A stretch of 58,804 bases of DNA, filler included, from Catajapyx aquilonaris (taxonomy: Eukaryota), in the NCBI GenBank assembly GCA_000934665.2. It is 2 parts of 2 records of this genome, joined end to end, with 100 filler letters (N's around TTAATTAATTAA, not from the genome) between each part and the next. Parts side by side here need not be neighbours in the genome. Positions count along the whole stretch, not along the records: positions 1 to 29,186 come from JYFJ02004826.1; 1 more part is not named here. The stretch is one strand, 5' to 3'. A program made the translations under genes and the position numbers. A model generated the notes under the pieces. It was not told the DNA's origin, made no database searches, and worked only from the letters and a program-made list of their open reading frames with translations. Below, one piece after another: positions 6,201 to 53,962 of the stretch. Position 1 is the stretch's first letter. Each line of letters starts with the position of its first letter.

Positions 6201-9200
6201 CCAGTCCCACCGCATATTGCGACTGTTGGGAGAAGTGCAAATGCAGGGCGCTGGTCACCGGCGGACAGGGAGCCAGATACGAACTTCTCTGCCGGCTTGT
6301 GAACGACACCGACCTTGTGACGATGCCGAACGCAAGAGGCGAGAGCATACTTCTCTTCTTGGTTCAAACGGTCGGGAGACAAGCGCTGGAGCAACGGCAA
6401 TACAGGATACCCAGGTACGTTAAGTCGCATTAATGTCCATATTGAAACATGAAATATATATTCCTCTCAGACCCAGAGCCACATCGGCTGCGTCCAGAAA
6501 AGCGGCGGCGGCAGCTGCGGCTTACGATTCCGAACCGGACATGCCCGAGCACGACTTGGAACCTCCGAGATTCAGTCGCCGCGCTTTGGAGCGGCTTCTG
6601 AACGATTGGGCCGCAGTACGCGGTATGATCATGTCCGGCGTACGTGAGGAAGTGTCCGGAACAGGCTCGTCCCATTCCAACCAGCAGCAGCCTGCTGGTC
6701 CGGTTTACGAGGAGCAGGCGTATCTCCAGAGCCAGAACGGGACGGCACTTCTGGACAAGTTCACCCACTGCCTGCTGGTCAAGTGCAGCGCAGAGGTGAC
6801 ATACGAACGATCGCCCAATGTAAAAAAATCTAAGAGCACCTGCCTTTTTTTAAAAAACTCGTTTCGTAATTAACCGCCCATTTCAGTACTAATATTGAGT
6901 CGCAATTTTGCAAAGTTAAACAGTAGTTAAAACCGAGGCTCTAAAATTTAACATGCTCGGAATAAACCTGACTAACTGTTGACGGAAATTATGATGTCCA
7001 GTGCGTTTATTCGAATGTATTTTCCGCAGGTTTTGGATACGCTGCTGACGACCCTGATTCGTGAGATCCAGAACGATTCGTCTCCTTCCCGTAAAGAGGA
7101 TGCGAAGGCGGTTGCTCGTCGGTTTATCCGCTCGGTGGCACGAATCTTCGTGGTGTTCAGCGTCGAGATGGCGCCGCATGCGTCTAAGAAAAAAGGTGGA
7201 GCCACATCCGGATCTGGATCAGTTCCGCAGCCGCTCTCGGAATGCAAGCGGGCCTTCCAAGCGCTGATCAATCTGGCTATTGAAGAGCTATGCGAGATTG
7301 CTGACTCGTTGGTGGCTCCAGTCCGACTTGGAGTTGCCAGACCGACCGCGCCGTTTGCATTGTCCAGCTCAAGTTCGGACATTATAACTGGATCTGAGGA
7401 GTTGTTCTCGGTCGAGCCGCTACAGCCGTATGCGTCGGTCGCTGTCGAGCCGCCTGCTGTCGAGGTTCCGTCAACATTGCGGCAGGTCCCGCCGCCACCC
7501 AGGCAGGATATTGAAGAGCCGCCTCCGGTTTTCCCGGCTGACGATATGGATGTTGAAGGGAGCGAACGGGATGACCCGGAGCGGTCTGAGCCGGACGGTG
7601 GGGGCGAAGGCGAAGGCGGGGATGCGGATCAGGAAGGTGAAGGCGACCCGGAAGGCGAAGGTGAAGGCGAATCGGATATGGAACTGGATCTTCTGGCGGA
7701 GACCGAAAGCGACTCGGATGACAACCAGTCCAATCAGGTTCGTTTTAAGTACGCCCCGAAATGGACAACGTAATACCAACTCTTTTCTGAAGGATAACGC
7801 CTCGGCACAACGCAGCATTCAAACGGGAGCGACGGCTGGGTCGGACGCTGGGGTTGCATCCCTTGCGCTGTTCTCGGAGGACGACTCGGCTGAATCCAGC
7901 CAGCAGGAAGACGACGACGAATCCGATGCGGGCGAAACAGACGAGCAGGATACAGAGGATTTTCCATTAGCGGACGAGCAGCTTGAGCGACGTGGCGGAT
8001 CATCATCGGCTCATGGAGGACACCGTGGCAACCTAGCACCGCAGTCGATGCAGTGGGCCATCCGCAGCCGGGACGCGAACCTCAGGTAGCCTCTTAGCCG
8101 TACACAATGTGCATGAAATAATGTGATGAATGTAGCTCAATTCCGCCTTTTTGCATTGTCATGAACATGCAGATCCACTCGTAGGTCCGGCGGAGGAAGC
8201 GGGGGCGGAGGAGGTGGCGGGGGCGGCCTTGTGTTCATCGACCCGTCTTCCCTCCGCCGCCCAGCCACCACAGCCACTGTTGCCGCAGCCGCAGCGGCCG
8301 GTCAGGAGCCGGTCACCATGGCCACAACGGCCAGCTGCCTCTCGCGGGCTTTCGGCATCGTCGTTCGGCAGATAGCGGACCTTCTCACAATGCTGCAGGA
8401 CTACCACGCACTTGCGCCGGCATTGCCCCGTACATTAGACGTGACATACCAGGAGTCCATCAACCTCCAGCTGTTCCTGGAGTACCACTTGAAACCGACG
8501 TGGGATTGGCTGTTGACGGTCATGGATTCGACTGAGGCTCAGCTGCGGTTCGGCGCGGCTTTGAGCCAGTCGGCCTACCCGTTGGCCGGGGTCGGATCAG
8601 GCGGAGGGACATATGGAAGCGGCGTATCCATTTCGATGCCAGTCGTTGCCAGCGTCGGTGGCGGAAGCAGCAGTAATGTCGGAGGCGGCGTTGGGGTCGT
8701 CAGCCGCGGTGGGAGAGTCAGGACTGTTGGGTTCGGAGGTGATGGACGAGGCGGCGGGACTGGCGGTGGCACAGGCGGCGCCGGAAGCGGCCCAGGAGTC
8801 GGCGTCGGTGTTGGAAGCAGCAGTGGCGGTGCAGGCGGTGGAGCCTCAGCCGGAACCAGTGGAGGTAGGTTCACATTCGGTGCTTTAATTAATTAAACTG
8901 ACCAAGTACATTAAATGATTAATCGTTTGGGAGCGATTGTTACGCCCCCCAAATAACGTAACCATGGCCTTTGCAGAGTAACATAAAACAGGTCGTTCAA
9001 TGAACAGACACGCACAAGTTGATTAACTTGTGTCGTCAATTAGCTAATTAGGATTGTGTGTAATGATGTTTATTGAGCGACCATGTCCCACTTTTTTTTC
9101 TGTGTGCCCCCATCCGTCAATTTGAAGCGATGACCACGGCCTCTGTTGTTCCCGGCACGCGTGCTGTGTGGGCAGTGTACTCGGGCGGTGGGGGCGGCCG

Positions 9201-12200
9201 GAGCGATGGGATCCAGCCTGGGGGCGGGGGAAGCGGAGGAGGGCCTCGCTCCACCTTGCCAGGCGGGGATCTGAGCGGAGGACGCCGGGAATTCCTGTCC
9301 TACTGCTTGTCCCTGATGCGGGCACACAACTCGGAGCATTCGGACAGCCTTCCTGTGATCGACGTTAGCAGTTTGAAGCACATTGCGTATGTGTTCGACG
9401 CTCTGATTTACTACATGCGATCGGGGACGGACGCGTCGGATACGGATGGCCGCGAACTTCAACCGGATCTGTGGAACGATCAGGATGAGAACGAGAATGA
9501 CGAACCTGAGGAGGAACCGGCCATGGAGGTCGAATCGGTGGAAGAGGAGCCACCGGCTGGTCCAGCCGCATCCGGATCGAAGGGTCGGAAGCACCCGTTT
9601 TTCCAGCGATCCGAGTCGACATTATGTTTGGGCTGCCCGCCGCCTGATCCGTTTCATACGCCCATGGGGAAAGCGCTTCCACTTGCCGACCAGCCGCATT
9701 TGCTACAACCAAACGCACGTCGCGAGGACCTCTTCGGCATACCCAGGCAGCCAGTGGCGGCCCAGGGGCAAACACAAGGGCAGTACAATCCTCTAGAGGT
9801 GCTCCCGACGAGGCTGGGGCTGTCAGTAAGAGCTGCAGATGCGACTGCGCCTCAAGCACCGCCGCATTACCATGAGACGGTGCCGCTATCGGAAGCCCTT
9901 GAGAGCTTAGCGGCTGCAACGATGGTGGCGCATCTTCCAATGCCGCCACCGCCTGAGGACGAACCGCAAGACCTTAGTATGCGCGGTGGTGGTGAAGCCG
10001 CAGAGGAGGATCCACCAGCGCCGGAACAACGCCGAGCTCCAATAATCGTCTCGCTGAAGAAAGCCAACCCAACACCGCCTCAGCCGGAAGTGCGACCGAC
10101 AAAGAGTGTGATTGTTCGTGCCCGTAAATCCGATGCTGCACCGGAAGTAATGGTCGTCGCTGTTGAAAGCACGTCTAAGGAAGAACCGGGCGATGTGTCG
10201 GCGAACGTTACTGTCGAAACGTCACGCGGGGCCAGCACCAGTGCTTCAGCGCCGCCTCCGCCACCAGCCGAACCGGCGGCTTCGACAGCAAGAGCTCCCA
10301 GCTCCATCGGGCAATCCGTATCACACGATCTGCTGCTGGGAAGGTGGAGACTCTCATTAGAACTGTTCGGACGAGTGTTTGTGGACGACGTTGGGCTTGA
10401 GCCTGGTTCGGTCATAGCGGAACTCGGCGGATTCCCCGTGAAGGAGGCGAAGTTCAGACGGGAAATGGAGCGGCTTAGAAACTCACAACAGCGGGATCTG
10501 ACGCTATCGAAAATGGATAGGGATCGTCCGCAGCTTATAGTTCAGACGTTCAAAGGTGAGTCGCATCCGGTCGTTGGCTGTCCCGTACTAACCGTTTCCA
10601 TTCCGTAGAATTGAATACGCAGTACAACAACTACCACCGTCGCACCAACGCATCGCAGCCGCCTTTGGCCGTCAACCGTGTGAAGGTGACTTTCCGTGAT
10701 GAGCCAGGAGAAGGTTCGGGTGTGGCTCGTAGCTTCTACACCGCGTTAGCCGAAGCCCTTCTTGGCGAGGAGAAGCTGCCCAGCTTGGAAGGCTGCTCCG
10801 TTGGTCCGAAGTACGCCCAGTTCAGCAGCATGCAGAGGCTGAAGCTGCGGGATCGGGAGTGCATACGACGCATCCCCCAGGTTGGTTCGCCCCCAACCTA
10901 ATTTTTTGTGTTGATCCCAAGTCCGAACCTGACCTTTCGGATGTCATACTCACATGGCGCTACACTGATTATTTTCATACATGTATTGCCATGTTTATTT
11001 GGTCCGATCCTTGGGAGTGAAAAACCAACACATTTTTTTTTTCTCCGCCTGCTGACCTCTCGAATGTTTGGGATTTTCCCCCCCTTTTTGCCTTTTCTTC
11101 CCGCCCCCCACCAGCGCTTTGCAGGCTCGAATCTCGAGGCAGTTTGTTTGTGCCGTCGGCAGGCCCACCGGTCGTCCTCGTCGTCTTCGTCATCCCAGAG
11201 ATCCAGGGAATCCAGACGCAACCTTTCGCTGGACGCACGGCCGTACTATCCGCAAGGGGAAGGAGGATCCAACGACCATCTGACGTTACATCAGCAGCAA
11301 CTGGGCGAACAGCTACATCCGAGGGTGAGTCGTCTCGTTTAATTTCGTCGCCAACGTCTAACCCTGTCTGTTTAGGTGCATTCGTTGCGTCCGTCATTGG
11401 CGTCCAAGATTACTGGGATGCTTCTTGAGCTTTCGCCGGCGCAGCTTCTTCTCCTGATGGCGTCGGAGGATTCGCTGCGGCAGCGGGTTGATGAAGCCGT
11501 CGACATCATTCTGAGCCAAGGGCGCGAGGCTGCCGTAGCCGCCGCGGCCGCAGCTGCAGCAGCCGCAGCAGCAGCCGCTGCCGCCGCAATCGCCACCTCG
11601 TCTTCCTCGACCACAACAGCCACTGGCAGCACCAACAGCGTTCCGTCAACCGCCGACTCTCTCGATGTAAGAGAAGCCGCGTTTGGCTTACTCAGCGGAA
11701 ACAAGAAGCAAGAACCGCCGAAGAACGAGGTAGTGGACGATCCTGCGGAAGAACTTGACGATTCAGCCCCGCTTTTTTATCAGCCGGGAAAGCGCGGGTT
11801 CTACTCGCCGCGACAGGGAAAAGGAAGTCCGGAGAGGCTCAATGCGTTTAGGAACGTCGGGCGGTAAGTACCGCATTGCGCTGCGGCTGAACCGTTGTAA
11901 CCGCCTTCTCCGTTTCAGACTAATGGGACTGTGCCTGCTTCAGAACGAGCTGTGTCCGATCTTTCTGAACCGACATTGCGTCAAATACATATTAGGCCGT
12001 CCTATCCGCTTCCATGATCTAGCCTTTTTCGATCCAGTCATTTACGAGAGCCTGAGGCATCTGGTCGTCGACGCGGAATCGAGCAGGGGCGATGGAGGTT
12101 CCTCCCTATTCTCCGCACTTGACCTGACCTTCAGCATTGACCTTAGCCCGGAGGAAGGCGGGGGATCAATGGAGCTGGTTCCAGGGGGCCGAGACGTTGA

Positions 12201-12840
12201 AGTTACAGCTCAGAATGTGTATGACTATGTGCGGAAATATGCAAAGTACCGGATGGTTAAAGCGCAGGAAAAGGCGCTTGAGGTAAGTCCCGCTTACGTT
12301 TGCGATTATTCGGATGTAATCAAGTTCGTTAACAGGAGCTCCGGAATGGAATATTCGATGTGTTACCGGCCGGGGCGTTGGAGGGGCTGACGGCGGAGGA
12401 TCTTCGGCTGCTACTGAACGGCGTCGGCGACATTAACGTGCAAACGCTGATATCGTACACGTCGTTCAACGACGAATCAGGCGAATCAAGCGAACGACTC
12501 GTCCGGTTCAAACGTTGGCTTTGGAACATCGTTGAAAAGATGAGCAACTTTGAGCGACAAGATCTGGTAATGTCCTCAGATTGCACATTATCGTTGCCTT
12601 GTAAATAACACTTGTGTTGTCCGGCAGGTTTACTTTTGGACTGGTTCTCCGGCTCTCCCTGCTTCGGAAGAAGGTTTCCAGCCCATGCCCAGCGTGACGA
12701 TCCGGCCTGCGGACGACGCTCATCTTCCGACGGCCAACACGTGCATCTCGAGACTTTACATCCCGCTCTACAGTTCCAAAGCGATTCTGAGACACAAGCT
12801 GCTTCTGTCCATCAAGACGAAGAGCTTCGGATTCGTCTGA
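221..12840 (+). CDS. hyd: E3 ubiquitin ligase hyd/UBR5 (EDD), about 19 coding exons
   Basis: Exon 1 at 221-282 (missed by the ORF track) encodes [21 protein letters not shown], the UBR5 N-terminus, and splices GT(283)..AG(2239) into [12 protein letters not shown]. Downstream: UBA domain ([40 protein letters not shown]), UBR-box zinc finger ([28 protein letters not shown]...CDCWEKCKC, ~6045-6245), MLLE/PABC ([33 protein letters not shown]), HECT with catalytic [10 protein letters not shown], ending [11 protein letters not shown] at 12840. Approximate exons: 221-282, 2240-2612, 2672-2937, 3006/3009-3654, 3716-4396, 4467-4833, 4891-5795, 5848-6414, 6471-6795, 7030-7737, 7793-8085, 8173-8864, 9128/9176-10556, 10609-10880, 11163-11324, 11376-11864, 11920-12282, 12336-12566, 12628-12840 (internal boundaries +/- a few nt). 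Confidence 0.97.
707..948 (+). mobile_element. Putative short non-autonomous Helitron in hyd intron 1
   Basis: A|TCTATAATAATAAA at the 5' end (707) and GAGCGAGCGAAGCGAG...CTAG|T at the 3' end (CTAG 945-948). TC...CTAG termini between A and T with no TSD match the Helitron pattern. The 3' hairpin is weak. Confidence 0.5.
964..1090. mobile_element. Small MITE-like inverted-repeat element, copy 1
   Basis: GCGGAAAACCAAACGACGATC (~967) pairs with GATCGTCGTTTCGTTTTCCGC (~1067-1088). A related copy lies at 1390-1528 and a partial arm at ~33790-33815. Confidence 0.6.
1136..1272 (+). mobile_element. 5'-truncated SINE 3' end
   Basis: CATCCCCC..TTCGCTCG.GGTACCCGGG...GGAAAAGGACCAC...GCAAATAAAGGTACCGTGCC...GTGCACTAACCCAATTA is near-identical to 55104-55230 and to the 3' tail of the minus-strand SINE at 55590-55928. 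Confidence 0.8.
1390..1528. mobile_element. Small MITE-like inverted-repeat element, copy 2
   Basis: TGCGGAAAACGAAACGGCGATCTGACGTCATCG ... CGATTACCTCGGATTCGTTGTTTGGTTTCCCACA, degenerate arms of the same family as 964-1090. Confidence 0.55.
1569..1670. mobile_element. ~100-bp palindromic MITE (GGGGTGGAATTT family), copy 1
   Basis: GGGGTGGAATTTCTGTCCCA...TGGGACGAAAATTCCATC inverted ends with internal CTAGTTACTGCTA. Same family as 31298-31405. Confidence 0.65.
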
Positions 12841-13244
12841 GTTCGGTTCGGACTAATTTGGCCCAAATTTATTGTTTTCCGTGGGTAATATTTCCAGTTC
12901 TTTCAACAGTAAAAAAAACGGGAGGCGTCGGGAGTTAGATTTTTCACGTTTATGGGGGATCCCGGTCGCAGCGACCAATTTTTTTGTTATTAATTATTAA
13001 AATATACAAATTGACTTGTTGCCACAACATCACCGAAAAATAACGAGGTGACATGACTGCAAGATTGTCTCTTCTTTTTTTTTTTGTGTAGAGTAGTAGT
13101 GTAGCCAGTAATGTTATTTGTCCCAAGTAGCTGTAATGTTAAGGAGATATGCAAAAAAAAATAAATGGAAGGAAACTTTCTCATTAATCGGAGCGTTTAT
13201 TAAATTGTACGTCGGATGACGAACATACTGCGATCACACTGCGA

Positions 13245-14389
13245 TTAATGTTTGCGGTATGCGTTGTTTACCTGTGTGGTACATTCTCGGCCGATCAAAA
13301 TGGGAATATTTGCGGTACAGGTATGTTCATAGGATACCGTCGCATCCATGGGTTGTAGTACGGTACCGGCCCAACTTGCGGAAACGCTGCCATCGGATAC
13401 CGTGGTAACCTGTAGAACTGCGGGATCTCCGGTTGGGCAAACGGCATCCAAGCAGTCAGCGGGTGTCTCGACATAGTTCCTGCAACAATGCACATTCGTA
13501 CAGTAACAATTAAAACGAATTCGGACGTCGTCAGTACCTGAATCATGTTGGATAGTCCGGCTTGGATTTTTCCTCCAAGCTTTGATGACTTTGGGAGCGA
13601 CTTTGTCTCGCGTTTCAATTATCGCGGGTGCATTATCAAAAATCGGGTCGAAGTTCGCTTCAGTGCTTGTCGTGCTATTAAATTCAGTAGTTTCGTTGGT
13701 AGCGGCTTCAGTGTCACGTCTGCTGTTAAATTCAGTAGTTTCATTGGTAGCGGCTTCAGTGTCACGTCTGCTGTTAAATTCAGTAGTTTCGTTGGTAGCG
13801 GCTTCAGTGTCACGTCCGCTGTTAACTTCAGTAGTTTCATCGGAAGCGACTTCAGTATTTGCTTCAGTGTCACGTCCGCTGTTAAATTCAGTAGATTCAT
13901 TGGAAGCAACTTCAGTGTCACGTCCGCTGTTAAATTCAGCACTTCCGTTGGTAGAAACTTCAGTATTTGCTTCTGTGCTGAATCCGATGCCAGATAAGTC
14001 GACTTCTGTTACACTGCCAGGGATCGGTTCAGCGGCTTCAGTGCTTTGATATCCTGACCAGGGCAGTTCAGACACCGGTTCAGTCGTGTCTCCAACTAAT
14101 TTATCGGGCTCATCTGTCGTACCGACAGCATAAGTTTGTTCGTTGGCGACTTCAGTAGTCGATGCAGGTAATTCAGTGCTTGTTGCAGTTGCTTCAGTTG
14201 TTTCGTCCGAGTACAAGTATGAATACATTTCGCTGTCGTACACACTGTCGTCAGTCGCACTCTGCAAATCTGCATGACATTTTTAGCTCATTATTTGTCG
14301 TATGGAAACGTTAGCTTACCTATGTCGTCTTCACCCGATATTGTTGCGAACGATGCGATTGCAACTAAAAGGAACAGTTCCGACCTCAT
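13245..14389 (-). CDS. Secreted mucin-like S/T/E-rich repeat protein with C-terminal 8-Cys domain, 2 exons (14389-14320, 14269-13245)
   Basis: Exon 1 encodes a signal peptide (MRSELFLLVAIASFATISG-EDD). A 50-nt GTAAGC...CAG phase-1 intron joins it in frame to the 340-aa ORF. The ORF has 16-aa repeats (DTEAATNETTEFNSRR) and a tail CYCTNVHCC...C...C...C...C. AATAAA on the minus strand at ~13196-13201. Confidence 0.8.
13655..13975. repeat. Coding 48-bp tandem repeat (~6 degenerate units)
   Basis: Unit GCTTCAGTGTCACGTCTGCTGTTAAATTCAGTAGTTTCATTGGTAGCG is repeated, with a 12-nt insertion variant. Confidence 0.9.
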
Positions 14390-18109: not shown

Positions 18110-19266
18110 ATGGACGATTATTTGGTAATCTGTCGTTTGGATTCAGACAGTTCAGAAGATGCGGGATTCAGAAAGGCATCTGCACATCAGAATCCTCCTG
18201 AAGAGAGAACAGGGCTGCTGAGCCGTATTCACCCGACAAACCTACAACACTTTAGGGTTTTAAAAATGTTCATTTAAACAAAATAGTCAACAATGGATTA
18301 TAGTGTCCTTTAAAAAATTTATTTTGTCCAATTACGGCAGGATGCGCTTCAAGAGCTGGACAACCAGTGGGCTTGTTACAATAATAAACTGGAGGACAAT
18401 TCATTCCTGGAGAAATCCCTGGACAATTACGCGGATCTCCTCAGTTCGCTATGGAACCGCCTAAGGACAACCAGAGATGATCTCGTGGATGTCCAGAAGC
18501 ACGACAATATCACGTTTGTATGCACATATAAGTACGCAATCAACTACAGTGAACAAATTCAGTACATAATCGCAATGTATTACAGGTGTGCAGGAAGTAC
18601 GACGGGATGGACTTCACATTAGCGGAGAACACTATCGGCTTGGCTTTGCAGGAACTGCAGCAAACTCTGAACTGGACCAAAGGACAGCTGGATGAGGTCA
18701 ATGCGGCTAAAAAAGAGGTGCTGACCAGCAAGGTCCAACGTCGGCAGAAGTTCAACGACAATCTGAACTTCAATCTGCAGGAGATGAAGCAGGTTTTCGA
18801 TGAAAAGCTGTACGCCAGGGCTAAAGCACGACGGCAGTACATCGAATCTGCTGAGGTTTCTCATGTACGCATGTGTGAGGAGATCACGCAGATTTATGTC
18901 GACCAGGTGAGCATTGCAGGTTTGACATTTGCTGTTAACATTTTCTTGTATCAGCTTGTCAACTCTTCAGTCGAGGACGTTGGTTCAGAAGCTGATGCGT
19001 ACAGGATGTCGGCTGAGAAGCTGGACCAGACGATCAAAGACGATGCTGCGGAGACGTCGCTGAGCCTCCTGAAGATAACGAGCGAGTACAACGACGAGGT
19101 GAGGGACGTGGCGTCCAGGCTGGTGGCCGCATACCGCGACCAGGACGACAGCATCATCCAAGCCGGACTGTCCGACCTGAGAGGAAACGCCGCAAGCTTC
19201 ATCCAATCCGTCGATTCAATCGCTGATATCTACAATAGCTACGCTGAAAAATTGCAGTCATTTTGA
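18110..19266 (+). CDS. Uncharacterised alpha-helical/coiled-coil protein
   Basis: In-phase GT-AG exons 18341-18517 (DALQELDNQW...), 18586-18906 and 18955-19266 (stop TGA), with AATAAA at ~19290. The first exon probably starts at ATG 18110; its donor is unresolved (after 18124 GTAATC or after ~18257). No family recognised. Confidence 0.7.
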
Positions 19267-19394
19267 ATAATCCTGAAGTATGATTGTGGAAATAAAATTT
19301 ATCAACACTCGAGAGCAACAATGAAGGCCGTTTCTAGGTACTGTCATTGTAAATTTCTTTGCGGAATACTCTTTCCAGTCCTGTTCGGATAGTC

Positions 19395-19889
19395 ATGGCT
19401 AAACCGTGTATTGATATTGACACGGTAAGTATTTTTGTTAATGTGCTTATGAAATGTTTGTTGCCGTCATTTGCTTCGTAATGACAATAATTATTGTTAT
19501 TCCAATCGCAGGACATTATTTTGCAATAATTATTAGCTGAATTTTGATCAATTCTGTTTGTTACTGATGATATATTTTCTTCCATATAGATTGATGTGTT
19601 ACTTGGCCTGCGTCTGATTCCTTCACTAGAGCAGCCAACTCCTTTGTCACTACAACGACCACGTCCTCCGCCACCTGCACGAGTACAGAGCGAACCCTTC
19701 CCAACACCGCCGCCGGTGGCAGAAGCAGCCCAACCGAACATGTCAACATCTCTGCCGAACCTTATTGACTCGGAAGCGGAATCCACGAACCGGACAGACA
19801 TCGGGATAAAAGTGGCCGTATTCTTCGGACTAATCACTTTGAGTTTAGCCGCAGCTAACGGACTTGGCCTGCTAAATTCGTCGCGATAA
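19395..19889 (+). CDS. Small (~109 aa) Pro-rich protein with a C-terminal transmembrane helix
   Basis: Exon 19395-19424 (MAKPCIDIDT|GTAAGT) splices in phase 0 to 19590-19889 (IDVLLGLRLIP...RPRPPPP...IGIKVAVFFGLITLSLAAANGLGLLNSSR*). AATAAA follows at ~19900. Confidence 0.55.
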
Positions 19890-20265
19890 AAAATCAAACA
19901 ATAAAACGGATTGGTATAACTGTTGTTGATTTTTAATTGTTGGCGGGTCGTTGACGACTGGAACAACCAGTGGCCGTAATGTTAAGCTCTGTTCTTTTTA
20001 ATTTAGATGTACAACTGGTAAGTCCGCAGTTACTTTTTAACATTGTCATGTTGAACTACAAAGTGTAACATATGCTTCCAGATTCCTGCTGTTGTGCCGC
20101 TGCGTGCATTTGTACCGTGCACGTCGAACTGAGAGCATAAAAAGTTCAGGAAATTTCAGCCAGTGTGAACCAGTAAGTTTTATTTTACGCTACTTTAATC
20201 GCATTTACATTTCATTGCGCAATTATTTTCAGGGTTACTCGTTACGTACGCAACCGTTTGAAATT

Positions 20266-23175
20266 ATGGATAAAACGTCTGAGAGCCGGCTGCCGTTGCC
20301 GCATGAGCCGGAAGTACCGCCGACGCACAACATAAATGAAGAGATGGTGCAAAATGTGAAGGTGACTTTGCGGAAGAAATTGCAGCAGATACCAGAGCGG
20401 GATCCGGTCGCAACTGCTGTGTACAACCCAGAGTACGTTAAGAATTTGTCTCACGTATTCGGTTAAAATGGTAATGACTTTTTTCTCCGTAGGAATCCAG
20501 ACATCAAGCGAGAGATGGTGAACAAAGTGACCGATCATATGCAAAAGTATAAGATAAAGATAGGCGGTCGGATGCAGACGGTCACGTACGATCCGCAGTC
20601 TAAAAACAGGCTGTGCTCGAAGGTCCAGTTCGTGGTGGACCCTCCTCCAAACAAGGACGACGATCTGTTCATACCGTACAAAGTGAAGGACAGGCCGATC
20701 CGCAAGAGGGACAAGGCACCTTCGATCCCAACCATCTTTCCGCATTTGCCTAGACCATCTCAAGCCTTCAGGGGCATGCAGGTAATCAACATTTTGGAAC
20801 TCAATTAATTTTTAATAATTAATGTCCGTTCGTCTTCAGGCTTTGAAGGAAGAGAACAGGCAGCTGCGGACTCAGCTTGCCTTAAAGCGCACCAGGATGG
20901 AGTCGCTAATGAAGGAGAAGATTGCGGCCGAGAAGGTCTACACTATCTTGCTGAACCTGCAGGACTTTCCGTTCCGAGCTAAGGACGTGCTGAGTCTTGA
21001 AGGTATCGCGGGTAAGATCGTGACGATGACGCATGAGAACAGGGCTTTGAAGGAAGAGATCACCCGGATGAGGAAAGGAGGAATCATGGAGGAGCCTAGC
21101 CGTCGGAGCAGGAAGGAACGGAGCATGTCCGTCGTCGACACGACTTTACACCAACGGTTGCCGTCAAGTGAGCCTCGCAATGAATTCAGCTAACGCAATT
21201 CATATCAATCGCATACTTTCACACAGGGATGTCCATGCAGTCCATACCCGAGGAGCAAAACATATGCGAGGAAGCTAGAGTGAAGAGCCTGGAGCGGAAG
21301 CTATTCGACACACTGAATAGATATCAGCAGGCGATGCACGCTCTCAAATTGCATCGTAAGGTAAGCTTTCATTAGTGTCGGTTTACATATGAAATGTAAC
21401 GAATGTAATTTCCAGGCGCTGAAGCTGGAGATCGGATACGATGTGAAGGTTGAGGACATCCTGAAGAAGGGTGCGACTTGGCGGGGGAGGGCCCAGGAGG
21501 TGTTCATGATGAAGCGGAAGCTGCTGTCGTTGGAGGCACGGTTCAAGCAGAATCTGACCCCGAAGGACGCTCCGTACGACGACCTCAAGTTTCCTTCGGT
21601 CCTACCAGGTGAGGTTACAGCAACTGATGGTGTAACTGATGCTGATTTCCCCCCATCTTCGCAGACGAGCACCATATGAAGAACCTGGACAGCATAATTC
21701 AACACAGGCGCATGAAGTACGAGATGGCCGACAGGGAGGCCAGGGAGTCCAAGGAGAAGCTGGCCGACTCGGAACGGAAGCTTCTAAGCGTCAACGCAAG
21801 GCTCACCGCCCTTCAGTTCTACATTATGGAGCTGCGGACCCTGGTGGAGGAGGCAAGGTTGAAGACGGAGAATTACGAGGCAGTCATCGCACAGCTTATG
21901 GTACTTTTTACCTGTTGACATTGTGCAGTTTTGACTCTTTGTGTCGTGTTGACAGAACGAGAGAGACTTCTTTGAGAGGAAGATGCACGACGGAAAGCAG
22001 GAGGCTTGGAAGGAGTCGAAGAAGGTTGAGGATCTGACTCGTGAGATTGCGCAGAAAACAGTCGTGGTGAGTGTGTACGATGCACTTAGTCCAAACCGAG
22101 GCAAACGGAACAAAAGTAATACGATTCATTTAAAAAAAAATTACAGTTTGACACGCAGAGGAAGGGCATGGAACGAAGCATCAGCAACGCCATGAAGTAC
22201 AGGGAGGGCTTGGAAGACATGATGCGACAGTTGAAGCAAGAGTAAGTACTGCAATAAATGCAAATAATGAGCGCACAGTTTGACGCTTTCGTTTCAAATT
22301 GATAGTATGGTCGTGACGACCAGTAGAAAACTGCAGAGGACACACTCGCTGCCGGAGCTCACCGGGCAGTTCGCCACTTACTTGGAGACGGAGCAGCAAA
22401 AACAGTGAGTAATCGCATGCGATTGGTAAGACTCATGCCGCAATTGATTGCGATGTTTTTTTCAGGGTTGACGTGACCCGATCTGTGGAAGATTTCTTCA
22501 GGATGCTGACCGATTATCGTGCTTTCCAGGACAGTGGTCTCTCACAGTTCGATGCGGTAAGGGACAGTATGTAGCCGTGAAATGTGTGGACGGTAAAAGA
22601 ACAAATAAACACTGGTTGAAACCTGGAAGTGCAATGTTTATAAACTAAAAAAGGTTTCATAAAATTTAAGGAGGGTGTGGGACGCTGTGCAATGGGGCAC
22701 GGTCTTGCAATTTATTATCACGCGGAATCGGTGAACGTCCTTTTCCATATGCAGGCGTTGCTCCCGGGCGGATCTCACCAACACAATGCGGCACAACCTC
22801 CTAAGAAGCATGGTTCAGCGTCTAGTGGAGCTGACAAGCAGCAGAAGGTTCGTGTAAAGTCAGTGCCGTCGACTGACGACGAGCAGTTCGGATCTCCGGA
22901 AAAGACAGGCAAGAACAAGATGGCTTTCGCAGCAGCAGGTCAGTTCGAAGTACCCAGCAACGCACGTTCTTCCTGGAGCAGTAGTGGCAGCAGGGGATCT
23001 GTGATTTCGGTCGGTTCAGGCTCGTCAATGAAGGTCATGAACAGGTAAATATGATTTGATGAATAATTATTTCCGTACACATTAATTATTATTATTATTC
23101 ACTTTATACCATTGCAGGGCTGGTTCCCTCGGATTCAAGATGGAAGCCATGAGACGCATCGCAAGAAAATATTGA
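20266..23175 (+). CDS. CCDC13: Coiled-coil domain-containing protein 13-like (centriolar/axonemal)
   Basis: Multi-exon coiled-coil ORF starting MDKTSESRLP (20266). It contains ALKLEIGYDVKVEDILKKGATWRGRAQEVFMMKRKLLSLE, which matches the recalled CCDC13 motif (LAREVGED...GTWRGRAQQILVL). The short form stops at TAG 22574. The long form splices 22556->22755 and ~23044->~23118 and stops at TGA 23175. Likely 5'-UTR exons at ~20007-20017 and ~20081-20172. Confidence 0.75.
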
Positions 23176-23579: not shown

Positions 23580-26500
23580 CTAGATGGCGTCGATCATTTC
23601 ATCCTGAAAGGTGAATAATTACCTTGCGTAGTATAGTAATTACAACGACAATCATTGCCAAGATATATACTTACTGTGGTGCAAACGCGGAATATGTGAT
23701 TGTAAAGTTTGAGGTTCTCTCGGAACAAGTAGGCCTGAAAGTCTATTGCAGGCAGCAGCTTGAAATGTCTGTCCAGAAGTTCAATGTCCCTGTGTGCGGT
23801 CAACATAATATGGATTTTAGCAATAGTTAAAGTAATAATAGGTGCAATAACGTACTTCTTGGCAATTTTAGGATCAAGATTGCTGTAGAATCCTCGTATG
23901 TCATGCTCCTCTGTGTAGTCTGTTCCAGCTGTGGTCGGGAAGAAATACGTCAAAAAATGACATGCATACGTAGATCGTTGGCTTTCAAAATAATTACGGC
24001 AATTAATACTGACACTTCTTAATTTCCTCTTCATGCTCTTTCTGTGCCTCTTGGGCCTCCCTCCGCAGCTCGGCTTGCAGCTCTCTCTCCTGCTCCAGGA
24101 TGTCCTTGGTGGCCTCCTGCACCTTGGACAGCTTGACCTTCTCCATGGCGATCTGGAAGCTGTCCACCAGCACGGCCACCAGGAGGCTCATGAAGCAGAC
24201 GTACTCCACGGCGATGTTGACCAGGAGGAACGCCAGCAGGACGGGATCCTTCTTCGACTTGTGGTAGATGTCCCCCCAGTTGTCCAGGGTCAACAGGCCG
24301 AACAGGGTCAGGCTTGACCTGCCCAGGTTGCCGAAGTTCACTGGGTCCAGCAAGGCGAACAAGCCTCGTCCGATCACAGCAAACATGTCTTATTGTTATT
24401 GATGCAGACAATGGTCGTTAAAGTCAACAACTTTGCTTTGTCATCACAGTCATTCTTTTATTAGACCACTTATTATTGTTATTGTGAAATTAATGTGAAC
24501 ATTACAATCACCTAACATATTTTATCCATATAGTTGCAGCAAAGAGTAGGATGCATTTGACAGTTTCCTTTGGTGATCTCGGCTGCATAGCAAGGCTATG
24601 GAGATCGAAGATAATATACCCATGTAATGAAGTAAGTAATGAAAATCCAGTAACTAGTAGAATTCTGATATCTAATAGAATTCTGGTGACTGTGATAGAA
24701 TTACAGTATATATATAGTAAAATTCCGATAACTAATGGAATTCAGCAACTAATACAATTATTTCCAGTAACTATATCATTCTGGTAACTATAATAGAATT
24801 CAATAGGTAATGAAATTCGATAAGGTGACTTATACAGTATAATGAAAATTCCAACCAAATTTCTATAAGAATTCCAATAACTATAATATAATTTTCAGTA
24901 ACTGATGATTCTTAATTAACTAATATAATTCCGATAAGTATAAAATTCAATAGCTAATAAAATTCTGATAACTAATAAAATTTCCAGTAACTGATGAAAT
25001 TTTCATCCACTACTAATAGAGTTCCGATAGCTAATAAAATTAGATAACTAATAACATTTAATAGCTAATAACATTCGATAGCTAATAAAATTTTCATCAA
25101 CTAATAGAAATACGATAACTAATAAAATTTAATAGCTAATAAAATTATATAACTAATGAAATTTAATAGCTAATAACATTCGATAGCTAATAAAATTTCC
25201 ATCAACTAATAGAAATACGATAACTAATAAAATTTAATAGCTAATAAAATTAGATGACTAATAAAATTTAATAGCTAATAAAATTCCGATAAGAATTCCG
25301 ATAACTCATAAAATTTCCGGTAACTAATAAAATTCAATAGGCAATAGGATTCGATAGCTAATAAAATTTCCGTCAACTAATAGAAATACGATAACTAATA
25401 AAATTTAATAGCTAATAGAAATACGATAACTAATAAAATTTAATAGCTAATAAAATTATATAACTAATGAAATTTAATAGCTAATAACATTCGATAGCTA
25501 ATAAAATTTCCATCAACTAATAGAAATACGATAACTAATAAAATTTAATAGCTAATAAAATTAGATGACTAATAAAATTTAATAGCTAATAAAATTCCGA
25601 TAAGAATTCCGATAACTCATAAAATTTCCGGTAACTAATAAAATTCAATAGGCAATAGGATTCGATAGCTAATGAAATTCCGAAATCGACGAATTTGCGA
25701 CAACTCATAAAATTCCGATATATAGGCAATAAAATTCGATAGCTACCAAGCCGCTAATATATTAATGACAACCAACAGTAGTATAACTGATATCCAATGA
25801 TAAAATAATGAATAGCTGCTCAATACTGTAAAATAAACCCAAGTATCGGGCTGGAAAAATCCCATGGATATCCAGCAGATATCCACTGATGAATCCCCAC
25901 TGGATATTTGGACATCCATGGGATTTTCCAGGGCGATTCGTAGTACCGTGCTACTCGTCGATGCACAAAATGATCCTGTGATGCCCATCATGAGTTCACA
26001 TTATGCAGAATAAGTTTGTGAAGATTGCTATGCGAAACACACCATGTATTTTGGCTTATTAGGTGTTAATAGGATACGTATACATCGCAGAAGAAAGGAT
26101 ACAGAGGAAGAGGAACATGAGGCAGGCGATGGACCCAATGGACTGCATCGACGAGAAGAAGCTGCTCACAATGAGCTGCAGGTTGCCTAGAAATCTTCAT
26201 CAGGAAGAAGAAGAAGAAAAAGGCAAATTTATTGTTATTATTATTGTCAGCATTATATGGATCTCATCGGAAGCTGCTGACTTGATGGTCCTGAGCATCC
26301 TGAGTGCTCTCAAGGCCCGTATTATCCGAAAGATGCGGAACACCCTGAAGATGGCGGCGCCACTCAGGCTGGCCACGTTCTCCAGGATGTAAGGCAGGAC
26401 CTGGTCGGACACGCTGAAGATGACGATGGTGAAGTCCAGGATGTTCCACGAGTCGGAGAAATAATCCCTCCTCAAAGCTATTAGCTTTATGATGGCCTCG

Positions 26501-27515
26501 AAGATGTAGATTCCAAGAAGAGCCGTGTCGCATTCAGATATGTAGAACTCTGAGGGGAAATAGAATCCCATCATTGGCAATAGGCAACACTGCCCGGCTC
26601 GCCCCCCTTCACTTAGACGTAGTACGATATGCCACAAAGTAGATGGCGCGCACATCCACCCTCTCTGCACGCTACTGCCACGGTGGCGACTATGGTAACT
26701 ACATGCACGTTGGTGATGAGTCAACGCGTGCCATGCCTAGCCAATTCTATGTGAATTTTTGTTACCTGAACCACTGACCAAAATAGACGTTGATGTATTC
26801 AAATGTTTGGGCGATGATGAGACCAGTGTTGAAGAAGATGATGCTCATGATGACAGTGGTGAACAGTGGCTGCTCAATGATGTGATGGACGTGCTTTCGA
26901 AAACTGGAGGCGTTGGCCAGTCTCTTCTTCTTGTTGATTGCTTCGACTCGTGTGTCCAGTAGATATTGCCTGTCGTCCACGTCGGATGTCTTGAGAAACT
27001 CGTTTCTGAAGGCTGCTTCACTCTCTGTTTCCATGGCTGCCAGACGTTCAATTTCCTGGATCTCAGCTTGTCTCCTGAGATCTTCTGCTAGTTTAATCGC
27101 CTCTTCGTCTATTGGGGTTACCTCAGCATACACTGGGATACGGAGCTTTCGAAGTGCCTACAAGTTTCGTCGTTATACTGATGATGCCCTATTATGTAAA
27201 ATTTGGACCATGAAATTTATATACCTTGAATGACTTTCGTCCTAGCAACATTGCTCTTTTGAGAGAGGCCTTCTCTTGCTCCTTTGCAGTCTTCTTGAAG
27301 TCGGACATTTCCGTGCTTTTGGTCGATCCAGCCGACCCAGTGGAGGCAGTCTCCATGGAAAACACCCCAGTGGACACAGTCCCTTGGGACACCCCAGAGC
27401 GGACAGAGGAAACGGAATCCCCTGAGAGCCGCCGTTGCTGCTGAGGCTGCAAGGTGGCCCCAAACGGTACATTTGTGCCTCCTCCTCCTCCTCTCCTGTC
27501 TGGAGGGGACGCCAT
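23580..27515 (-). CDS. CATSPER1: CatSper1-like sperm cation channel alpha subunit (single 6TM domain), 8 coding exons
   Basis: Reconstructed exons: 27515-~27225; ~27157-26780 (S1 LFTTVIMSIIFFNTGLII); ~26549-26282 (S2-S4: IYIFEAIIKL, DSWNILDFTIV, FRVFRIFRIIRALRALRMLRTIK); 26194-26103 (MQSIGSIACLMFLFL); 24388-24014 (YMFAVIGRGLF..DPVNFGNL..LTLFGLLTLDNW..LLVAVLVDSFQ plus coiled coil); ~23928-23855; ~23789-23674 (ELLDRHFKLLPAIDFQ); ~23603-23580 (DEMIDAI*). S5-pore-S6 closely resembles recalled CATSPER1 (SIAAILILMF..LF..DPKRFQN..TLFTLLTLDDW..VLVDSFQ). Confidence 0.85.
24880..25745. repeat. AT-rich minisatellite (~19-21-bp unit) with a higher-order duplication
   Basis: Unit ~CTAATAAAATT(T/C)xATAG/A. 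Block 25101-25362 recurs apparently identically at 25412-25673. Confidence 0.9.
25851..25931. repeat. ~80-bp imperfect hairpin
   Basis: CTGGAAAAATCCCATGGATATCCA ... TGGACATCCATGGGATTTTCCAG. Confidence 0.7.
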
Positions 27516-39510: not shown

Positions 39511-42500
39511 ATTACGCACTTTTTCCACCAAAATTCATTTAAAAAATGGCTTCCCACCTAAGCTGATTTTCTTTCCAGGCAATGCTGAAATCCTTGAAGC
39601 TCAGCTTGTATTTCGCCACCTGCAAAACTGATCTCACTCCTACAAACAGATATCAAGTCACATGCTCAAGAAGCATCTAGCAATCATGGATTTCATTTTC
39701 GTAAAAATACTTTGTGTTTATCCTGAGGCGAACCGTCTGCACACACCGGATAATTGTCAGGCGGGAATTGACAGGAAATTGAGAAACGTATTAATTTCTC
39801 CAAGAGCGCCATCTAGATAAACCAATGAGAGGTTCTGGCTGGAGCAAGGTTGCCACTAGGCTTCCGTAAGAAGTCCACCTCGTCAATCGGATTGTTGGTA
39901 GTGACCCGCGGCGATAATCCTCAATCCCCCCCACTTTTCCCTCCCCTCCCTCCTCCCCCTCCCCCCAAAAGGAGCGACCCTCCGGGAGAAAGAAACGCGC
40001 CATTAACAAGGAGGAGATTAAAAACGGGAAACCATTCCGGGAGGGCTTTTTGGCGAGATTGTCGCCCGCTTCTCTGCCGCCCAAATCGCCATTATAAAGT
40101 TGAGATGGAGGCCTGGATAGTGAAGGAAGGACCCAAGCCTGGGCTCTAATGTTTAGGGGCGACATAAGCTTCAGTCCCGACGATGCCTCCCCCAATCCTA
40201 ACCCCCACTGCAAAAACGCGCTTTGATTACAGCTGTTCCAGACCTAAAATGCGACGTGTCTGCCTACCCTTCGAGATTACGTCAGCAGGGAAAGAATAAG
40301 TGCCCCCCCCCCTCTTTTTTATTACCTATGACCCCCCCCCCCTCACTCAAATATCCATTCTTTCTGAGGTACAAAAATTGGATTCTAGGAATAGCTACAC
40401 ATTGCACTTGCACCTAATAGGAAGCAGTTATATGATGAAATGAAGGAAAATGTATGAAAGACGGACATCAGCAGCTGCGTGGGCTACAAGTGAGTGCTTG
40501 GAAATGCGCGCATCTTGCATTGGTTTATGGTGGCTTGGGTGGTACTTGGGTGGCCGTTGAGTCTCCAGTTAGGCCCCCGCACCAGTTAGGTGTTATTGTA
40601 AACGATTATGAGCGGCCATTTTCCACACTGACGTCGATGTTGGGAGCGTTTCGGAAGCGCGCTGGATGTTATGGATATTATTTAATCAGGCGCGCTGTCA
40701 TATTCGCAGCTCGGGGCTTTCCGGCCTCTCATAAATAAGCGGCGCTTTCCCAATGAATCTGACGCTAACGACGGAGCTTCGGGGGGGAAAGGACTTTGAG
40801 GACCCCCCTTTAATTGCGGCAGGGGCCTCATCCCACCGGATTTACGGCCACAACCAAGGTAAAAATGACGTCATTGGAATCAGTTTGCTGTGCCCATTTT
40901 CTTCCCCCTCTCCACTTGCTCAGTTTGGCTGCTTGTCTACCCACCCACACCCAGATCAAGCCCGGATTTGTCCCGGATTCATCCCTGACATCTCTCCCAG
41001 CTGCTAACGGCGCCCTTTTGTTTTATCACTTGTAGGCTACCAACGCCGCCCCCAAATGCGCTCTATACAGCTGCACCACACCATGCAACGATGCCATCTC
41101 TTTTTTCTTTCTCTTCCTCTTCTTTTTTAGTGTCCTTTTGCCCGCATCTCCCCAGCCAACCGCACTCAAGTCAACATCCATGTCCACTTCCAGCAGGAGC
41201 GACATTAACAAGTGGAAGGAACCCTGGAGTCGAAAACGGTTTGCGGACCCCCTTTGCGTGACTCTTGCTGATACATCCGCCCCCAAATGTTCCTCATCTG
41301 GTACGGGACATTACGAAAAGAATATCTTTTCGGTTCCCAGCGAATGAGCCGGCTGGCAGCATCAGCGGGGCTCCATCCAGTCTTCCTTCACTTTGGACGG
41401 ATGGGTGCATCGGATAGGCGTGCAGATGGAACTGGCTTGAAATATGAGTCCGAACCCCACACCCATTCCTAACTTGTCCCCCCGCCACATGCACCGCTCG
41501 CAAATGACGTGTTCAAATCGACGCACTCTTCCAGACTGCAAGCCGGCCTGTGTCACGTCCCTGAGTCCACTTGCATGGAATTGGATGCTCTCAAATTGAA
41601 AAGGTGTGCTTAATTATGCGGTACTCATTTCATTTGCCTGTTGCTTGTATGGCAATATTAGGCTGATAGCACCTTTCAAATTATAGTCGGCAGCAAATTG
41701 AATCAGGTTTATCATGTAGGCCACGCTAGGCGCAGGGATAGCAGGGTGGGGCCTACCTTTCCTATACCTTTACTACCTTTCCTATACGTTTCCTACCTTT
41801 CATACCTTTCCTACCTTGGGATAAACCTCATTCAGGTATGGTACCCGGATTGTGCATATACATTGACGGATATGAGCTGCGTAAATTTGGGCCTGAACAC
41901 CGGATACCTCAGCACTATACTGGGCTTGAGTATTGCGGTACGCTTCAGTTAGTTATATATCTAGCAGAATAGGTCAGCTCCAGGCAAGTACTCCAAGCAC
42001 TTGCACACCACTCCCCCGTTTCGCCCCCCTTCCTCCACCCCCTGGAAGAGCTGGGGAAAAGCATGATGGCAGTTGTAAATCTGCTGGCAAATAGTCGAAA
42101 CGGAGCATTAAAGCAATGGACGGGGGGGGGGNGGGGGGGGGGGGGAATGTGCCCCGGCTTTTATTTCCACCCCCTTCAAACCGAACGATAGTCTTTCCCA
42201 ATCGGTGCCATTGTTTTGTGTGTCCGGGCTCCAATGGGATACTTGGGCTTTATTCCGCTCTGCTCCACCGCAGCAACAGCCTCATATCTTCCTCTTCAGT
42301 CAGGCTGCTGCTTTCTTGCCTGGGATAGCAGGGTAGTAGTACAGCCCTGCTGTGCACTATGTCTCTGGATGCTGCTGGCTACTGGTGCTATACCATGTAA
42401 ACTGCTGCACTGCTCGGTGCAAGCCACTTTAGCTCTTGGCTTTTCAGACCCGTTGCATGCCGGAATTATTAGAGGGAGGAACTCTCGGTCCTTCAAGAAG

Positions 42501-51700: not shown

Positions 51701-53962
51701 ACTCATAACTGGAACCCCGAATCGAGGCACGGTCTCCATCTGTGGAGTCGAGGCGTAACTCAATGTCGGATCGTCATCAGCGATGTCGCTTTTTGTCACC
51801 CGTTTTTTTTTTTCTTTGTACGGAGATGGAGGGATAAGCCGGGGGGAGGCTCAGCAGGCGCGGCATGTTGCAAATGTTTTCGGCACGTTCCTAAAATGCT
51901 TCATCCAACCAGAAAATTTTCATTACCTTTACCTGCTTACTGTCCTGGATCCAGGCAAAAGTCCCAAACTACTGCAACAAAGTCTGGAGTTGAGGGGAAT
52001 TCTTTCCCGCTCGCTTGTCAAAAGGGATTGGAAACAGGTGGAGGCTGGGGGGTAGAGAGAGAGAGAGAGGGGGGGNCGGTGGGGGGGGGAAGGAATTATT
52101 CTGGCATCTCATTTGAACCGGCCAAAAGGGATTATGCATTGGGCTTATTAAGTGAGATGAAAGGAGGGTGGAGATTGGTGCTGGATTCCGGAATTCCGGA
52201 TGGTAATGTTGACGGTAGGGGTTCTTATGGGTGGGGTGGGAGGTGGGGGGGAAGCTGTAGATGTACACGGTTGAGGTTGGAAGGTAGTGCGTATAGTAGT
52301 CTCGGCAGTGGTGCGGGCAAAATTGCTAATAGTTGGGCCTAGGAATGAAGCTTTCATTAGCACTAATGGGCATTAAGCAGAAGGCACTGCACTTGGCGAT
52401 AATTAATAGCTTATTAGCCTTATAATTGTAGTCTCCCAGCAGGGAGAGACGTTTCATTTCGCGCCTTCCTTATTACGCGCCACAGACGGATGGACCTCTT
52501 TGTTCCAATTTTGAAAAACACACTCACTCGATTGGGCCGCCGTTACACACCCACGCATAATGAGGCACATCCCACCCTACCTCCCCACAAGCAGCCTGCT
52601 CTTAAATTTCCACTCCCCGAGATGCTTAAATGATATATGGCTGTTGAATGGGAAATTTCTCAAGTCGGCACCCCTTTCTCTAATAATTTAAAGTGATTGT
52701 TTCGTGAATGAGGCTTGCCTTGGAATTGGATAATGCAGCCTCTAGGCGGCATCCATCCATGTATGGGGAGGTTCGAATCCGAGCCCGCCCTTTGCAGTTG
52801 CCTTCTTCTCGAGGCGTTTAAGCTTGATTAATGATTCTCACTTTGTATCCGTCACTTGCAATGCCAGAGCCAAACCAACGCCGGGGCATCCCTAACCGTG
52901 TATATCTTGCATACCCTGAAAATCAGCACACCTCTCTCAGCCCGCCCTTACCCCCTGGCGATGCCACTTTGGAATCCCCAATATCGCAGCACCAGTGCGC
53001 AATAAACTGTGGGCAGAAATTGAATTAACATGCTTGCATTTCTCATCACTTACATGCATGCTACAATTTCATCAGGATTTGCATTGCCACCGGAAGGAAA
53101 AGTCACAATAAGTTATGGAAATGGTGGGCCTTGGCCAAGTGGAGAACCAAATTCTTGCAAATGACAAGTCATTCCTTCACGTGACAGCGACAGGTGAGGA
53201 AAATGATGCGGTTGAGATGCACAGTGCATCCAACTAACAACGGCCGAAAGGGTTAAACTAACCTTAATGAAACTCCTGCCCCAGCCCCATCCCCAGTTCC
53301 CCTCCTCCTCCTCATCTCCCACAACCTCATCTTGTTTACCCAGTAAAGTCAGGAAAAAGGAAGCCATTAAAAGTTTGGAGAGCAAGAGAGAGAAGTAGTC
53401 ATCCACAAGCCCACCCCTCCTTCCTCCTGCTCCTCCTCCTCCCGACACCCCCCCCCCTCCCTCACTTCACCTACAAAGTTGTCAGTATTACTGGAGCCGT
53501 TCAAGTTGAGAAAGATCATTAATTAAAAACTTGGTGGGCCTGTCAGCAGCATCGGCCAGCGTAATTAATGAGCCCCGTCTTCTTTANNNNNNNNNNNNNN
53601 NNNNNNNNNNNNTTTACCCCCCCCCCCCCCCCCACCACCGTCTTATTCCACACAGAATAGACATCTCCTGCAGATCCTCCCCAACCACCAGAATATCGTG
53701 CTAGTTGATTTACCAGGCATTCCTGTGTGTTCCCCACCTTCGTTTAAATGGTTTATTTATTTTACATGCAATGGTGCGTAAAAATTAACACTGTGCTATC
53801 TATCCTCCCTTGTTCTGGAAGAGGGAAGTGTAGAACTCAGACTCCGACAGTTTGCATCTGTACTTCTGGACCATCTCTTGGACCCGCAGCTTTCGACGCA
53901 CGTGTGGCGGCTGGTAGCTGCAATAAAAATGTGAAAACAATGCTGAATGTATTGTTCATAAC

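Follow-up and report, generated by a model that had tools for sequence, protein, structure and literature searches.

The stretch of DNA analysed here (the window, 58,804 nucleotides (nt) at its full length) comes from genome assembly GCA_000934665.2, deposited under the name Catajapyx aquilonaris, and its first 29,186 positions belong to record JYFJ02004826.1. The feature of principal interest is a gene on the minus strand at 27515-23580, whose eight exons join into one open frame of 538 codons and whose product has the features of CatSper1, a pore subunit of the calcium channel of the sperm flagellum. A preliminary description of this DNA had proposed, at 23580-27515, an uninterrupted open reading frame of eight exons for a CatSper1-like channel in an arthropod genome. 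Its coordinates, exon count and open frame are borne out by a splice model that we built independently of it and by the alignments of homologues to that model.

Gene structure and splice joins

The frame opens with the ATG at 27515-27513, which is the first after an in-frame stop, and closes with the TAG at 23582-23580. All seven introns are of the GT-AG type, giving 14 canonical splice dinucleotides out of 14. Introns 1 to 7 measure 67, 229, 87, 1714, 85, 66 and 71 nt, six of them being short (66-229 nt). Exon 1 (27515-27225, donor GTATAT) encodes 97 residues rich in Gly, Ser, Gln and Thr, for which there was no Pfam match and no detectable homology. The charged, helix-like remainder of the N-terminal domain, transmembrane helix S1 and the start of the S1-S2 loop lie on exon 2 (27157-26779, acceptor ending in ttgtag, donor GTCAGT, phase 1). 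S2, S3 and S4 follow on exon 3 (26549-26282, Pfam Ion_trans 1.4e-15), and the S4-S5 linker with the first half of S5 on exon 4 (26194-26103), whose acceptor, ending in gatgaag, lies behind a pyrimidine run and whose donor is GTATCC. Beyond the long intron 4 (26102-24389), exon 5 (24388-24014, Pfam Ion_trans 1.2e-8) contributes the second half of S5, the pore helices, the selectivity filter, S6 and a charged helix of about 45 residues continuous with S6. The conserved C-terminal domain starts on exon 6 (23928-23856), which is joined from the phase 1 donor GTCAGT of exon 5 to an acceptor ending in gaccacag, with homologue alignments running through the join. Exon 7 (23789-23675, donor GTAAGT) encodes the core of this domain, in a pattern that recurs at the C-terminal ends of CatSper1 from barnacles, springtails and Limulus, while exon 8 (23603-23580, acceptor ending in cctttcag) supplies the last seven codons and the stop TAG.

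Alignments of homologues, which begin at about residue 150-190 of the encoded protein (hereafter the query), bear on most of these joins. A CatSper1 prediction of Lingula (P0147, called so from its zero-length sisterhood with a named Lingula protein in the 54-row tree described below) aligns without gaps over the joins of exons 2 and 3, 3 and 4, and 4 and 5. When exons 6-8 are added, 51 of 379 domain rows extend past query residue 470, and the alignments reach residues 510-536, within a few residues of the ends of many homologues; that with the Pollicipes protein then covers positions 104-443 of its 446 residues. Scores rise as well, from 223.5 to 233.6 for Patiria and from 217.4 to 227.8 for Pollicipes, and likewise for Styela, Watersipora and Owenia. 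Since the alignments span the joins, and since it takes exons 6-8 for them to arrive at the C-termini of the homologues, we regard the eight-exon model as confirmed.

Were the donor of exon 5 left unused, the frame would stop 7 nt further on, at a TAA (24005-24003), yielding a form of 471 residues. This five-exon model was set aside as the main form, since homologues align to exons 6-8, and the shorter form is a possible product of intron retention. Exons 6 and 7 together with introns 5-7 lie inside one open frame of 197 codons (23597-24187, minus strand); intron 6, at 66 nt, is divisible by three in length, and its retention would therefore leave the frame open. Intron 4 houses an AT-rich tandem array at 24912-25680, with 43.7 copies of a 17-nt unit at 69% matches, nested in units of 105 and 311 nt. 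The pair of 311-nt units is 97% alike, so that the last duplication must have been recent.

Features of the encoded protein

The query contains one six-transmembrane (6TM) Ion_trans domain divided between exon 3 (Pfam profile positions 38-137) and exon 5 (positions 142-238). Alignments with homologues likewise recover a single channel domain in its 538 residues, as opposed to a chain of two or four repeats. The coordinates of the S4 ladder, the filter and the S6 motif were worked out by hand, and the remaining helices were assigned to exons only. In S4 (26343-26287), seven arginines occupy every third position and are followed by a lysine across the join of exons 3 and 4; among the four CatSper subunits, CatSper1 has the most fully charged S4. 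The selectivity filter, TLDNW at 24290-24276, conforms to the pattern T-x-D-x-W with its aspartate, and all 24 CatSper1 rows aligned over exon 5 share its T, L, D and W. The S6 motif lies at 24185-24153. Both motifs that the preliminary description had cited, LLTLDNW in the pore and LLVAVLVDSFQ in S6, were found in the translation.

An AlphaFold2 model of exon 5 alone, built on a 24-row alignment, has a mean predicted local distance difference test score (pLDDT) of 85 and consists of a helix, a pore helix, the filter and a second pore helix, followed by S6, which extends as one helix of about 75 residues (exon 5 residues 48-123, pLDDT > 90). This bears in part on the putative C-terminal coiled coil that had been proposed for the protein: the long helix continuous with S6 is there in the model, and the heptad pattern is weak by eye. 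The region past S6 is conserved, and the profile of arthropod CatSper1-like proteins described below matches mouse CatSper1 up to chain residue 948 of 955. At the other end of the protein, the N-terminal domain (about 193 residues) is of low complexity and then charged, and has 3 histidines (1.6%, counted from the translation). The histidine-rich N-terminal domain of mammalian CatSper1 is thus absent from the query. Invertebrate CatSper1 proteins listed in Table 1 of PMC13674862 also have no histidine enrichment, and we therefore take it as a mammalian trait and not one that defines the family.

Similarity to CatSper1

In comparisons with solved structures, whole-chain scores favour Cav and Nav chains because their four repeats sum, and scores per stretch favour mouse CatSper1. 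Exon 5 matches mouse CatSper1 in one stretch at 53.9 bits, against 36.5 for CatSper3 and 17.8 for the best repeat of Cav3.1; chains of CatSper2 and CatSper4 were absent among the 60 structure chains listed for this exon. Exon 3 matches mouse CatSper1 (7eeb_A) in one stretch at 65 bits, the best of the Nav repeats taken singly reaching 36, and no CatSper chain besides CatSper1 stood among the 60 chains listed. A profile combining arthropod CatSper1-like proteins with the two Ion_trans exons of the window scored 294.8 bits with CatSper1 in one stretch; a NaChBac chimera, at 136, came next among the single-domain chains.

An exhaustive HMMER search of 1.84 billion representative proteins with exon 5 returned 677 matches at E<=0.001, with no match above 54% identity. 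Seven of the ten best carry CatSper1-like names (from a sea star, a shad, a brittle star, Limulus, a nemertean, a tunicate and a barnacle), two have uninformative names and one is unnamed, none being named as another channel. Among 20 further matches that were looked up, every name bearing CatSper is CatSper1, including those of a springtail, a bryozoan, amphioxus and two environmental proteins, with an ichthyosporean, two protists and a fungus with a CatSper1-named protein at greater distance. The profile search returned 111 proteins at E<=1e-10, in which every row mentioning CatSper says CatSper1. No row for CatSper2, 3 or 4 appeared among the best 150 of the 677 HMMER matches or among the 111 profile matches. 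A word-based protein search with exon 5 recovered one protein, a coral CatSper1, among 1783 candidates, and a feature search of a protein atlas gave generic Ion_trans clusters, a result that does not separate the CatSper subunits.

The closest proteins are about 49-55% identical to the query. Sequences of an annelid, a brachiopod and Limulus outscore those of springtails in plain similarity, so the notion that a springtail protein is the closest relative by this measure was rejected; the grouping with springtails comes from trees only.

Phylogenetic position of the channel

In a quick tree of 82 rows, the query falls inside a starred set of 32 rows of animal CatSper1. A more careful tree comprised 54 named rows, analysed under LG+G4 and rooted on bacterial Nav. 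Here the query is sister to the springtails (97/88, starred), the pair joins the barnacles (96/89, starred), and these in turn lie within Bilateria (95/94, starred) and animals (100/98, starred); the tree also recovers cnidarians, echinoderms with hemichordates, and a lophotrochozoan group. A mixture-model tree under LG+C20 with 27 rows has the same topology at weaker support, namely 93/79 for the springtails, 88/84 for the barnacles and 96/93 (starred) for Bilateria. The tree check thus agrees with the preliminary description: among rows that comprise no CatSper2-4, the query lies in animal CatSper1 and apart from bacterial Nav. We consider its position inside bilaterian CatSper1 solid, its pancrustacean placement within CatSper1 likely and its sisterhood to the springtails tentative.

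Affiliation of the host

The host was placed independently by means of a bystin gene in the same window (about 17446-14666, minus strand, at least four exons, Pfam Bystin 4e-60), whose conserved part shows 71-75% identity to the bystin of a cockroach. A search with one of its exons found 1208 proteins at E<=1e-20, the best 120 of which were listed at 67-78% identity. The named proteins among those 120 are nearly all from insects and branchiopods, the exceptions being two rotifers, a copepod and a mussel. From these, 38 rows (25 named and 13 unnamed) were chosen by hand for a tree of 315 stitched residues, in which the query bystin and the group of all 22 insect rows (94) are sisters (81), within a pancrustacean clade of 29 rows that also takes in branchiopods and copepods (96, starred).

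Given a pancrustacean bystin and a CatSper1 beside those of springtails and barnacles, the earlier assignment of the host to the arthropods is supported, and in our best reading it is a non-insect pancrustacean near the base of the hexapods, probably an early-branching hexapod. Four DNA runs of one sample each contain 0.96 of the sampled words of the stretch, and a fifth contains next to none; those four may be its source data and thus lend no independent support. Among the five runs listed there was no RNA run containing the stretch.

Comparison with known channels

Mouse CatSper1 (PDB 7eeb chain A; also 9ubw and 9ubx) is the best per-domain match of known structure for both the voltage-sensor exon and the pore exon. 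It shares with the query the single 6TM domain, the arginine-rich S4, a T-L-D-x-W filter and the helix after S6. It differs in its filter (TLDDW, against TLDNW in the query) and in its N-terminus, with 17.2% histidine according to PMC13674862 against 3 histidines in about 193 residues of the query, and identity is low outside the channel core.

Among arthropods, the springtail CatSper1 proteins (Folsomia candida P0297, an unnamed product of Orchesella dallaii, P0139, and the Orchesella cincta protein in Table 1 of PMC13674862) have the domain order of the query and its conserved C-terminal domain, and form its sister group in both careful trees. Zhao et al. (2026, PMC13674862) list in that table, for Orchesella cincta, a CatSper1 of 633 residues whose N-terminal domain has 191 residues and 2.6% histidine, which is near the values of the query (about 193 and 1.6%). 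The springtail proteins differ in being about 35% identical to the query over exon 5, in their greater length (585-633 residues), in an insert after the filter and in a very long stem branch. The barnacle CatSper1-like proteins (Pollicipes pollicipes P0011, Amphibalanus amphitrite P0292) are shorter than the query, at 446 residues. The CatSper1-like isoform X2 of Limulus polyphemus is 49% identical to it over 262 residues; Limulus does not join the pancrustacean clade in the trees, where its placement is weakly supported. Bacterial Nav channels (NaChBac, NavAb) and other single-domain eukaryotic channels also have one 6TM domain that needs tetramerisation and a helix after S6, but they score far lower, at 28-34 bits for exon 5 (CatSper1 55) and 136 for the profile (CatSper1 295).

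Assignment of the gene and alternative explanations

Structure scores, the names of the nearest proteins and the trees agree on the CatSper1-like, single-domain channel that had been suggested for this locus. We conclude that the gene very probably encodes the CatSper1 orthologue of a non-insect pancrustacean, probably of an early-branching hexapod. Several observations weigh against this assignment, and they are set out here with the alternatives on which they bear.

One group of them concerns the conservation of the protein. Of the 65 columns with at least 90% identity over 44 reference rows of animal CatSper1, the query retains 53 and the median row 64; only two of those 44, a rotifer paralogue and a truncated prediction, retain fewer. 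Directly behind the filter aspartate the query has N, at a position occupied by D in at least 90% of CatSper1 rows. The branch of the query is long, at 1.33-1.77 changes per column. The best relative, at about 49-55% identity, is too distant for a test of selection. The low column count could mean either the fast evolution of a sperm protein or relaxed constraint, and it is thus compatible with a CatSper1-derived gene that is no longer used, whether as a young pseudogene or under relaxed constraint in a lineage losing the channel. We consider this unlikely. The 538 codons are open over eight exons with all their splice dinucleotides canonical, and the query keeps 20 of the 20 columns that are invariant over the 24-row CatSper1 alignment, inclusive of T, L, D and W in the filter, along with the S6 motif and the whole arginine ladder of S4. 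Most of the 12 changed columns are conservative (R to K, V to L, T to S, F to L or V, N to S, T to A, D to N), with Q to G and Y to N as the two non-conservative ones. Long branches are also seen in the CatSper1 of springtails, barnacles, the rotifer and fish, and Cooper and Phadnis (2017, PMC5553355) describe CatSper1 as fast-evolving. Because the frame is open, its splice sites are canonical and the invariant columns are kept, we read the gene as fast-evolving but probably functional.

A second group concerns the distinction from other channels and the neighbourhood of the query in the trees. With no row of CatSper2, 3 or 4 in the trees, the choice of CatSper1 over these subunits rests on PDB scores and database names, and two of the database names are automatic annotations as opposed to experiments. 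Long branches may attract one another; when the springtails are omitted, the query groups with the barnacles and the rotifer (82, weakly supported), and when the barnacles are omitted, with springtails, Limulus and fish (89, weakly supported). One may accordingly consider a different single-domain channel that merely resembles CatSper1, be it of the BacNav or EukCat type, a paralogue among CatSper2-4, or a lineage-specific offshoot working outside sperm; in its favour stand trees free of CatSper2-4 rows and the generic Ion_trans clusters of the atlas search. We hold this to be quite improbable, and less probable than a gene fallen out of use. The bacterial Nav rows form the outgroup across a branch with 100/100 support (starred) in the 54-row tree, and protist and fungal proteins named CatSper1 are nearer to the query than any repeat of the four-domain channels. 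Mouse CatSper1 outscores CatSper3 (55 against 36.5 bits), with CatSper2 and CatSper4 not among the 60 chains listed, and the C-terminal domain past S6 is common to the CatSper1 of other phyla.

That the stretch derives from a different animal, as contamination taken up into the record during assembly, is very improbable: the best-scoring named full-length relatives are indeed those of an annelid, a brachiopod and Limulus and not of springtails, but such scores fit the short branches of the annelid and brachiopod proteins, the gene is contiguous with a bystin that is pancrustacean by similarity and by tree, and the CatSper1 tree groups the query with springtails and barnacles under two models.

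Functional and evolutionary implications

If the CatSper1 assignment holds, the protein would, by analogy with mouse and sea urchin, be one of four different pore subunits (CatSper1-4) of a heterotetrameric, Ca2+-selective channel of the sperm flagellum. This channel would be sensitive to voltage and alkaline pH, and the entry of Ca2+ through it would alter the flagellar beat. On the same analogy, the protein would assemble with CatSper2-4 and the auxiliary subunits, be expressed in male germ cells, select for Ca2+ and be gated by pH. The lineage may still use CatSper-based sperm signalling, as the preliminary description proposed. As the histidine-rich N-terminus is absent, any sensing of pH must rest elsewhere.

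The presence of CatSper in arthropods has been treated variously in the literature. Cai and Clapham (2008, PMC2572835) report a CatSper4-like expressed sequence tag in an Arctic springtail, while in the summary by Cooper and Phadnis (PMC5553355) the CatSper gene set disappeared on the branches leading to arthropods and other taxa. Romero and Nishigaki (2019, PMC6660944) describe arthropods as heterogeneous for CatSper, with two alpha subunits in a butterfly, and state that Drosophila is without CatSper, sNHE and sAC, in keeping with the absence from Drosophila that the preliminary description had assumed. Six arthropod genus names gave no match in nine supplementary PDFs of that article, the ninth of which holds sequences of sNHE and sAC only. 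Literature searches on CatSper with springtails, hexapods and arthropods (the last since 2014) found no paper devoted to arthropod CatSper. In RefSeq and GenBank, CatSper1 is already annotated for two springtails (Folsomia candida by name), Pollicipes, Amphibalanus and Limulus. No insects, decapods or Daphnia occur among the 111 profile matches, which is weak evidence of absence given that the search is word-limited.

Against this background, the novelty implied for the locus by the preliminary description was overstated, arthropod CatSper1 being both annotated and in the literature. What is new here is one more CatSper1 gene, of a kind already known from other arthropods, and the gain is incremental, in that public annotation and three papers already reveal the pattern. 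The gene adds a non-insect arthropod lineage with an intact main pore subunit to the springtails, barnacles and horseshoe crab, in contrast to papers stating that the whole CatSper set was lost on the arthropod line (PMC5553355). Should the host be a hexapod of early divergence, as the trees of bystin and CatSper1 suggest, the gene would assist in confining the loss within Pancrustacea to the stem of the insects and to groups whose sperm are non-flagellate; the loss of CatSper may thus be linked to the form of the sperm. A bolder proposal is that this genome belongs to a lineage splitting off right next to the true insects and has retained the whole CatSper complex in working order, that, together with the springtails, this puts the loss on the insect stem and not at the arthropod base, coinciding with a change in sperm transfer and activation, and that the N beside the filter aspartate and the fast-evolving core mark an altered selectivity or gating. 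We regard this as conceivable but rather doubtful. The gene model may also be of practical use, since automated annotation could split the gene at its repeat-filled intron of 1.7 kb or end it at the in-frame TAA past exon 5.

Other features of the window

Searches against Rfam gave no match anywhere in the window. From 28000 to 58804 there are few long open frames, and the region looks intergenic or rich in repeats. The window holds 118 N, and X appears in translations at 41974-42249, 44513-44950, 50785-51342, 51102-51482, 51635-52342 and 51969-52325, so that some of the N fall in this half. On the minus strand at 13245-14282 lies an open frame of 345 codons, rich in Thr and Glu and with a repeat unit of about 15 residues, which matched no family above the cut-off. 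A run of open frames on the plus strand at 18314-23048 has a coiled-coil-like composition and no Pfam family above the cut-off; these frames are probably one gene, lying tail-to-tail with the CatSper1 gene at about 500 nt from its stop. A large multi-exon gene on the plus strand at about 2100-12900 codes for an E3 ubiquitin ligase with a HECT domain (Pfam HECT 9.1e-22) and a weak UBR-box match (zf-UBR 0.003, below the cut-off), which is of the hyd/UBR5 type, and the G+C content of its exons is 53-59%, against about 41-46% elsewhere.

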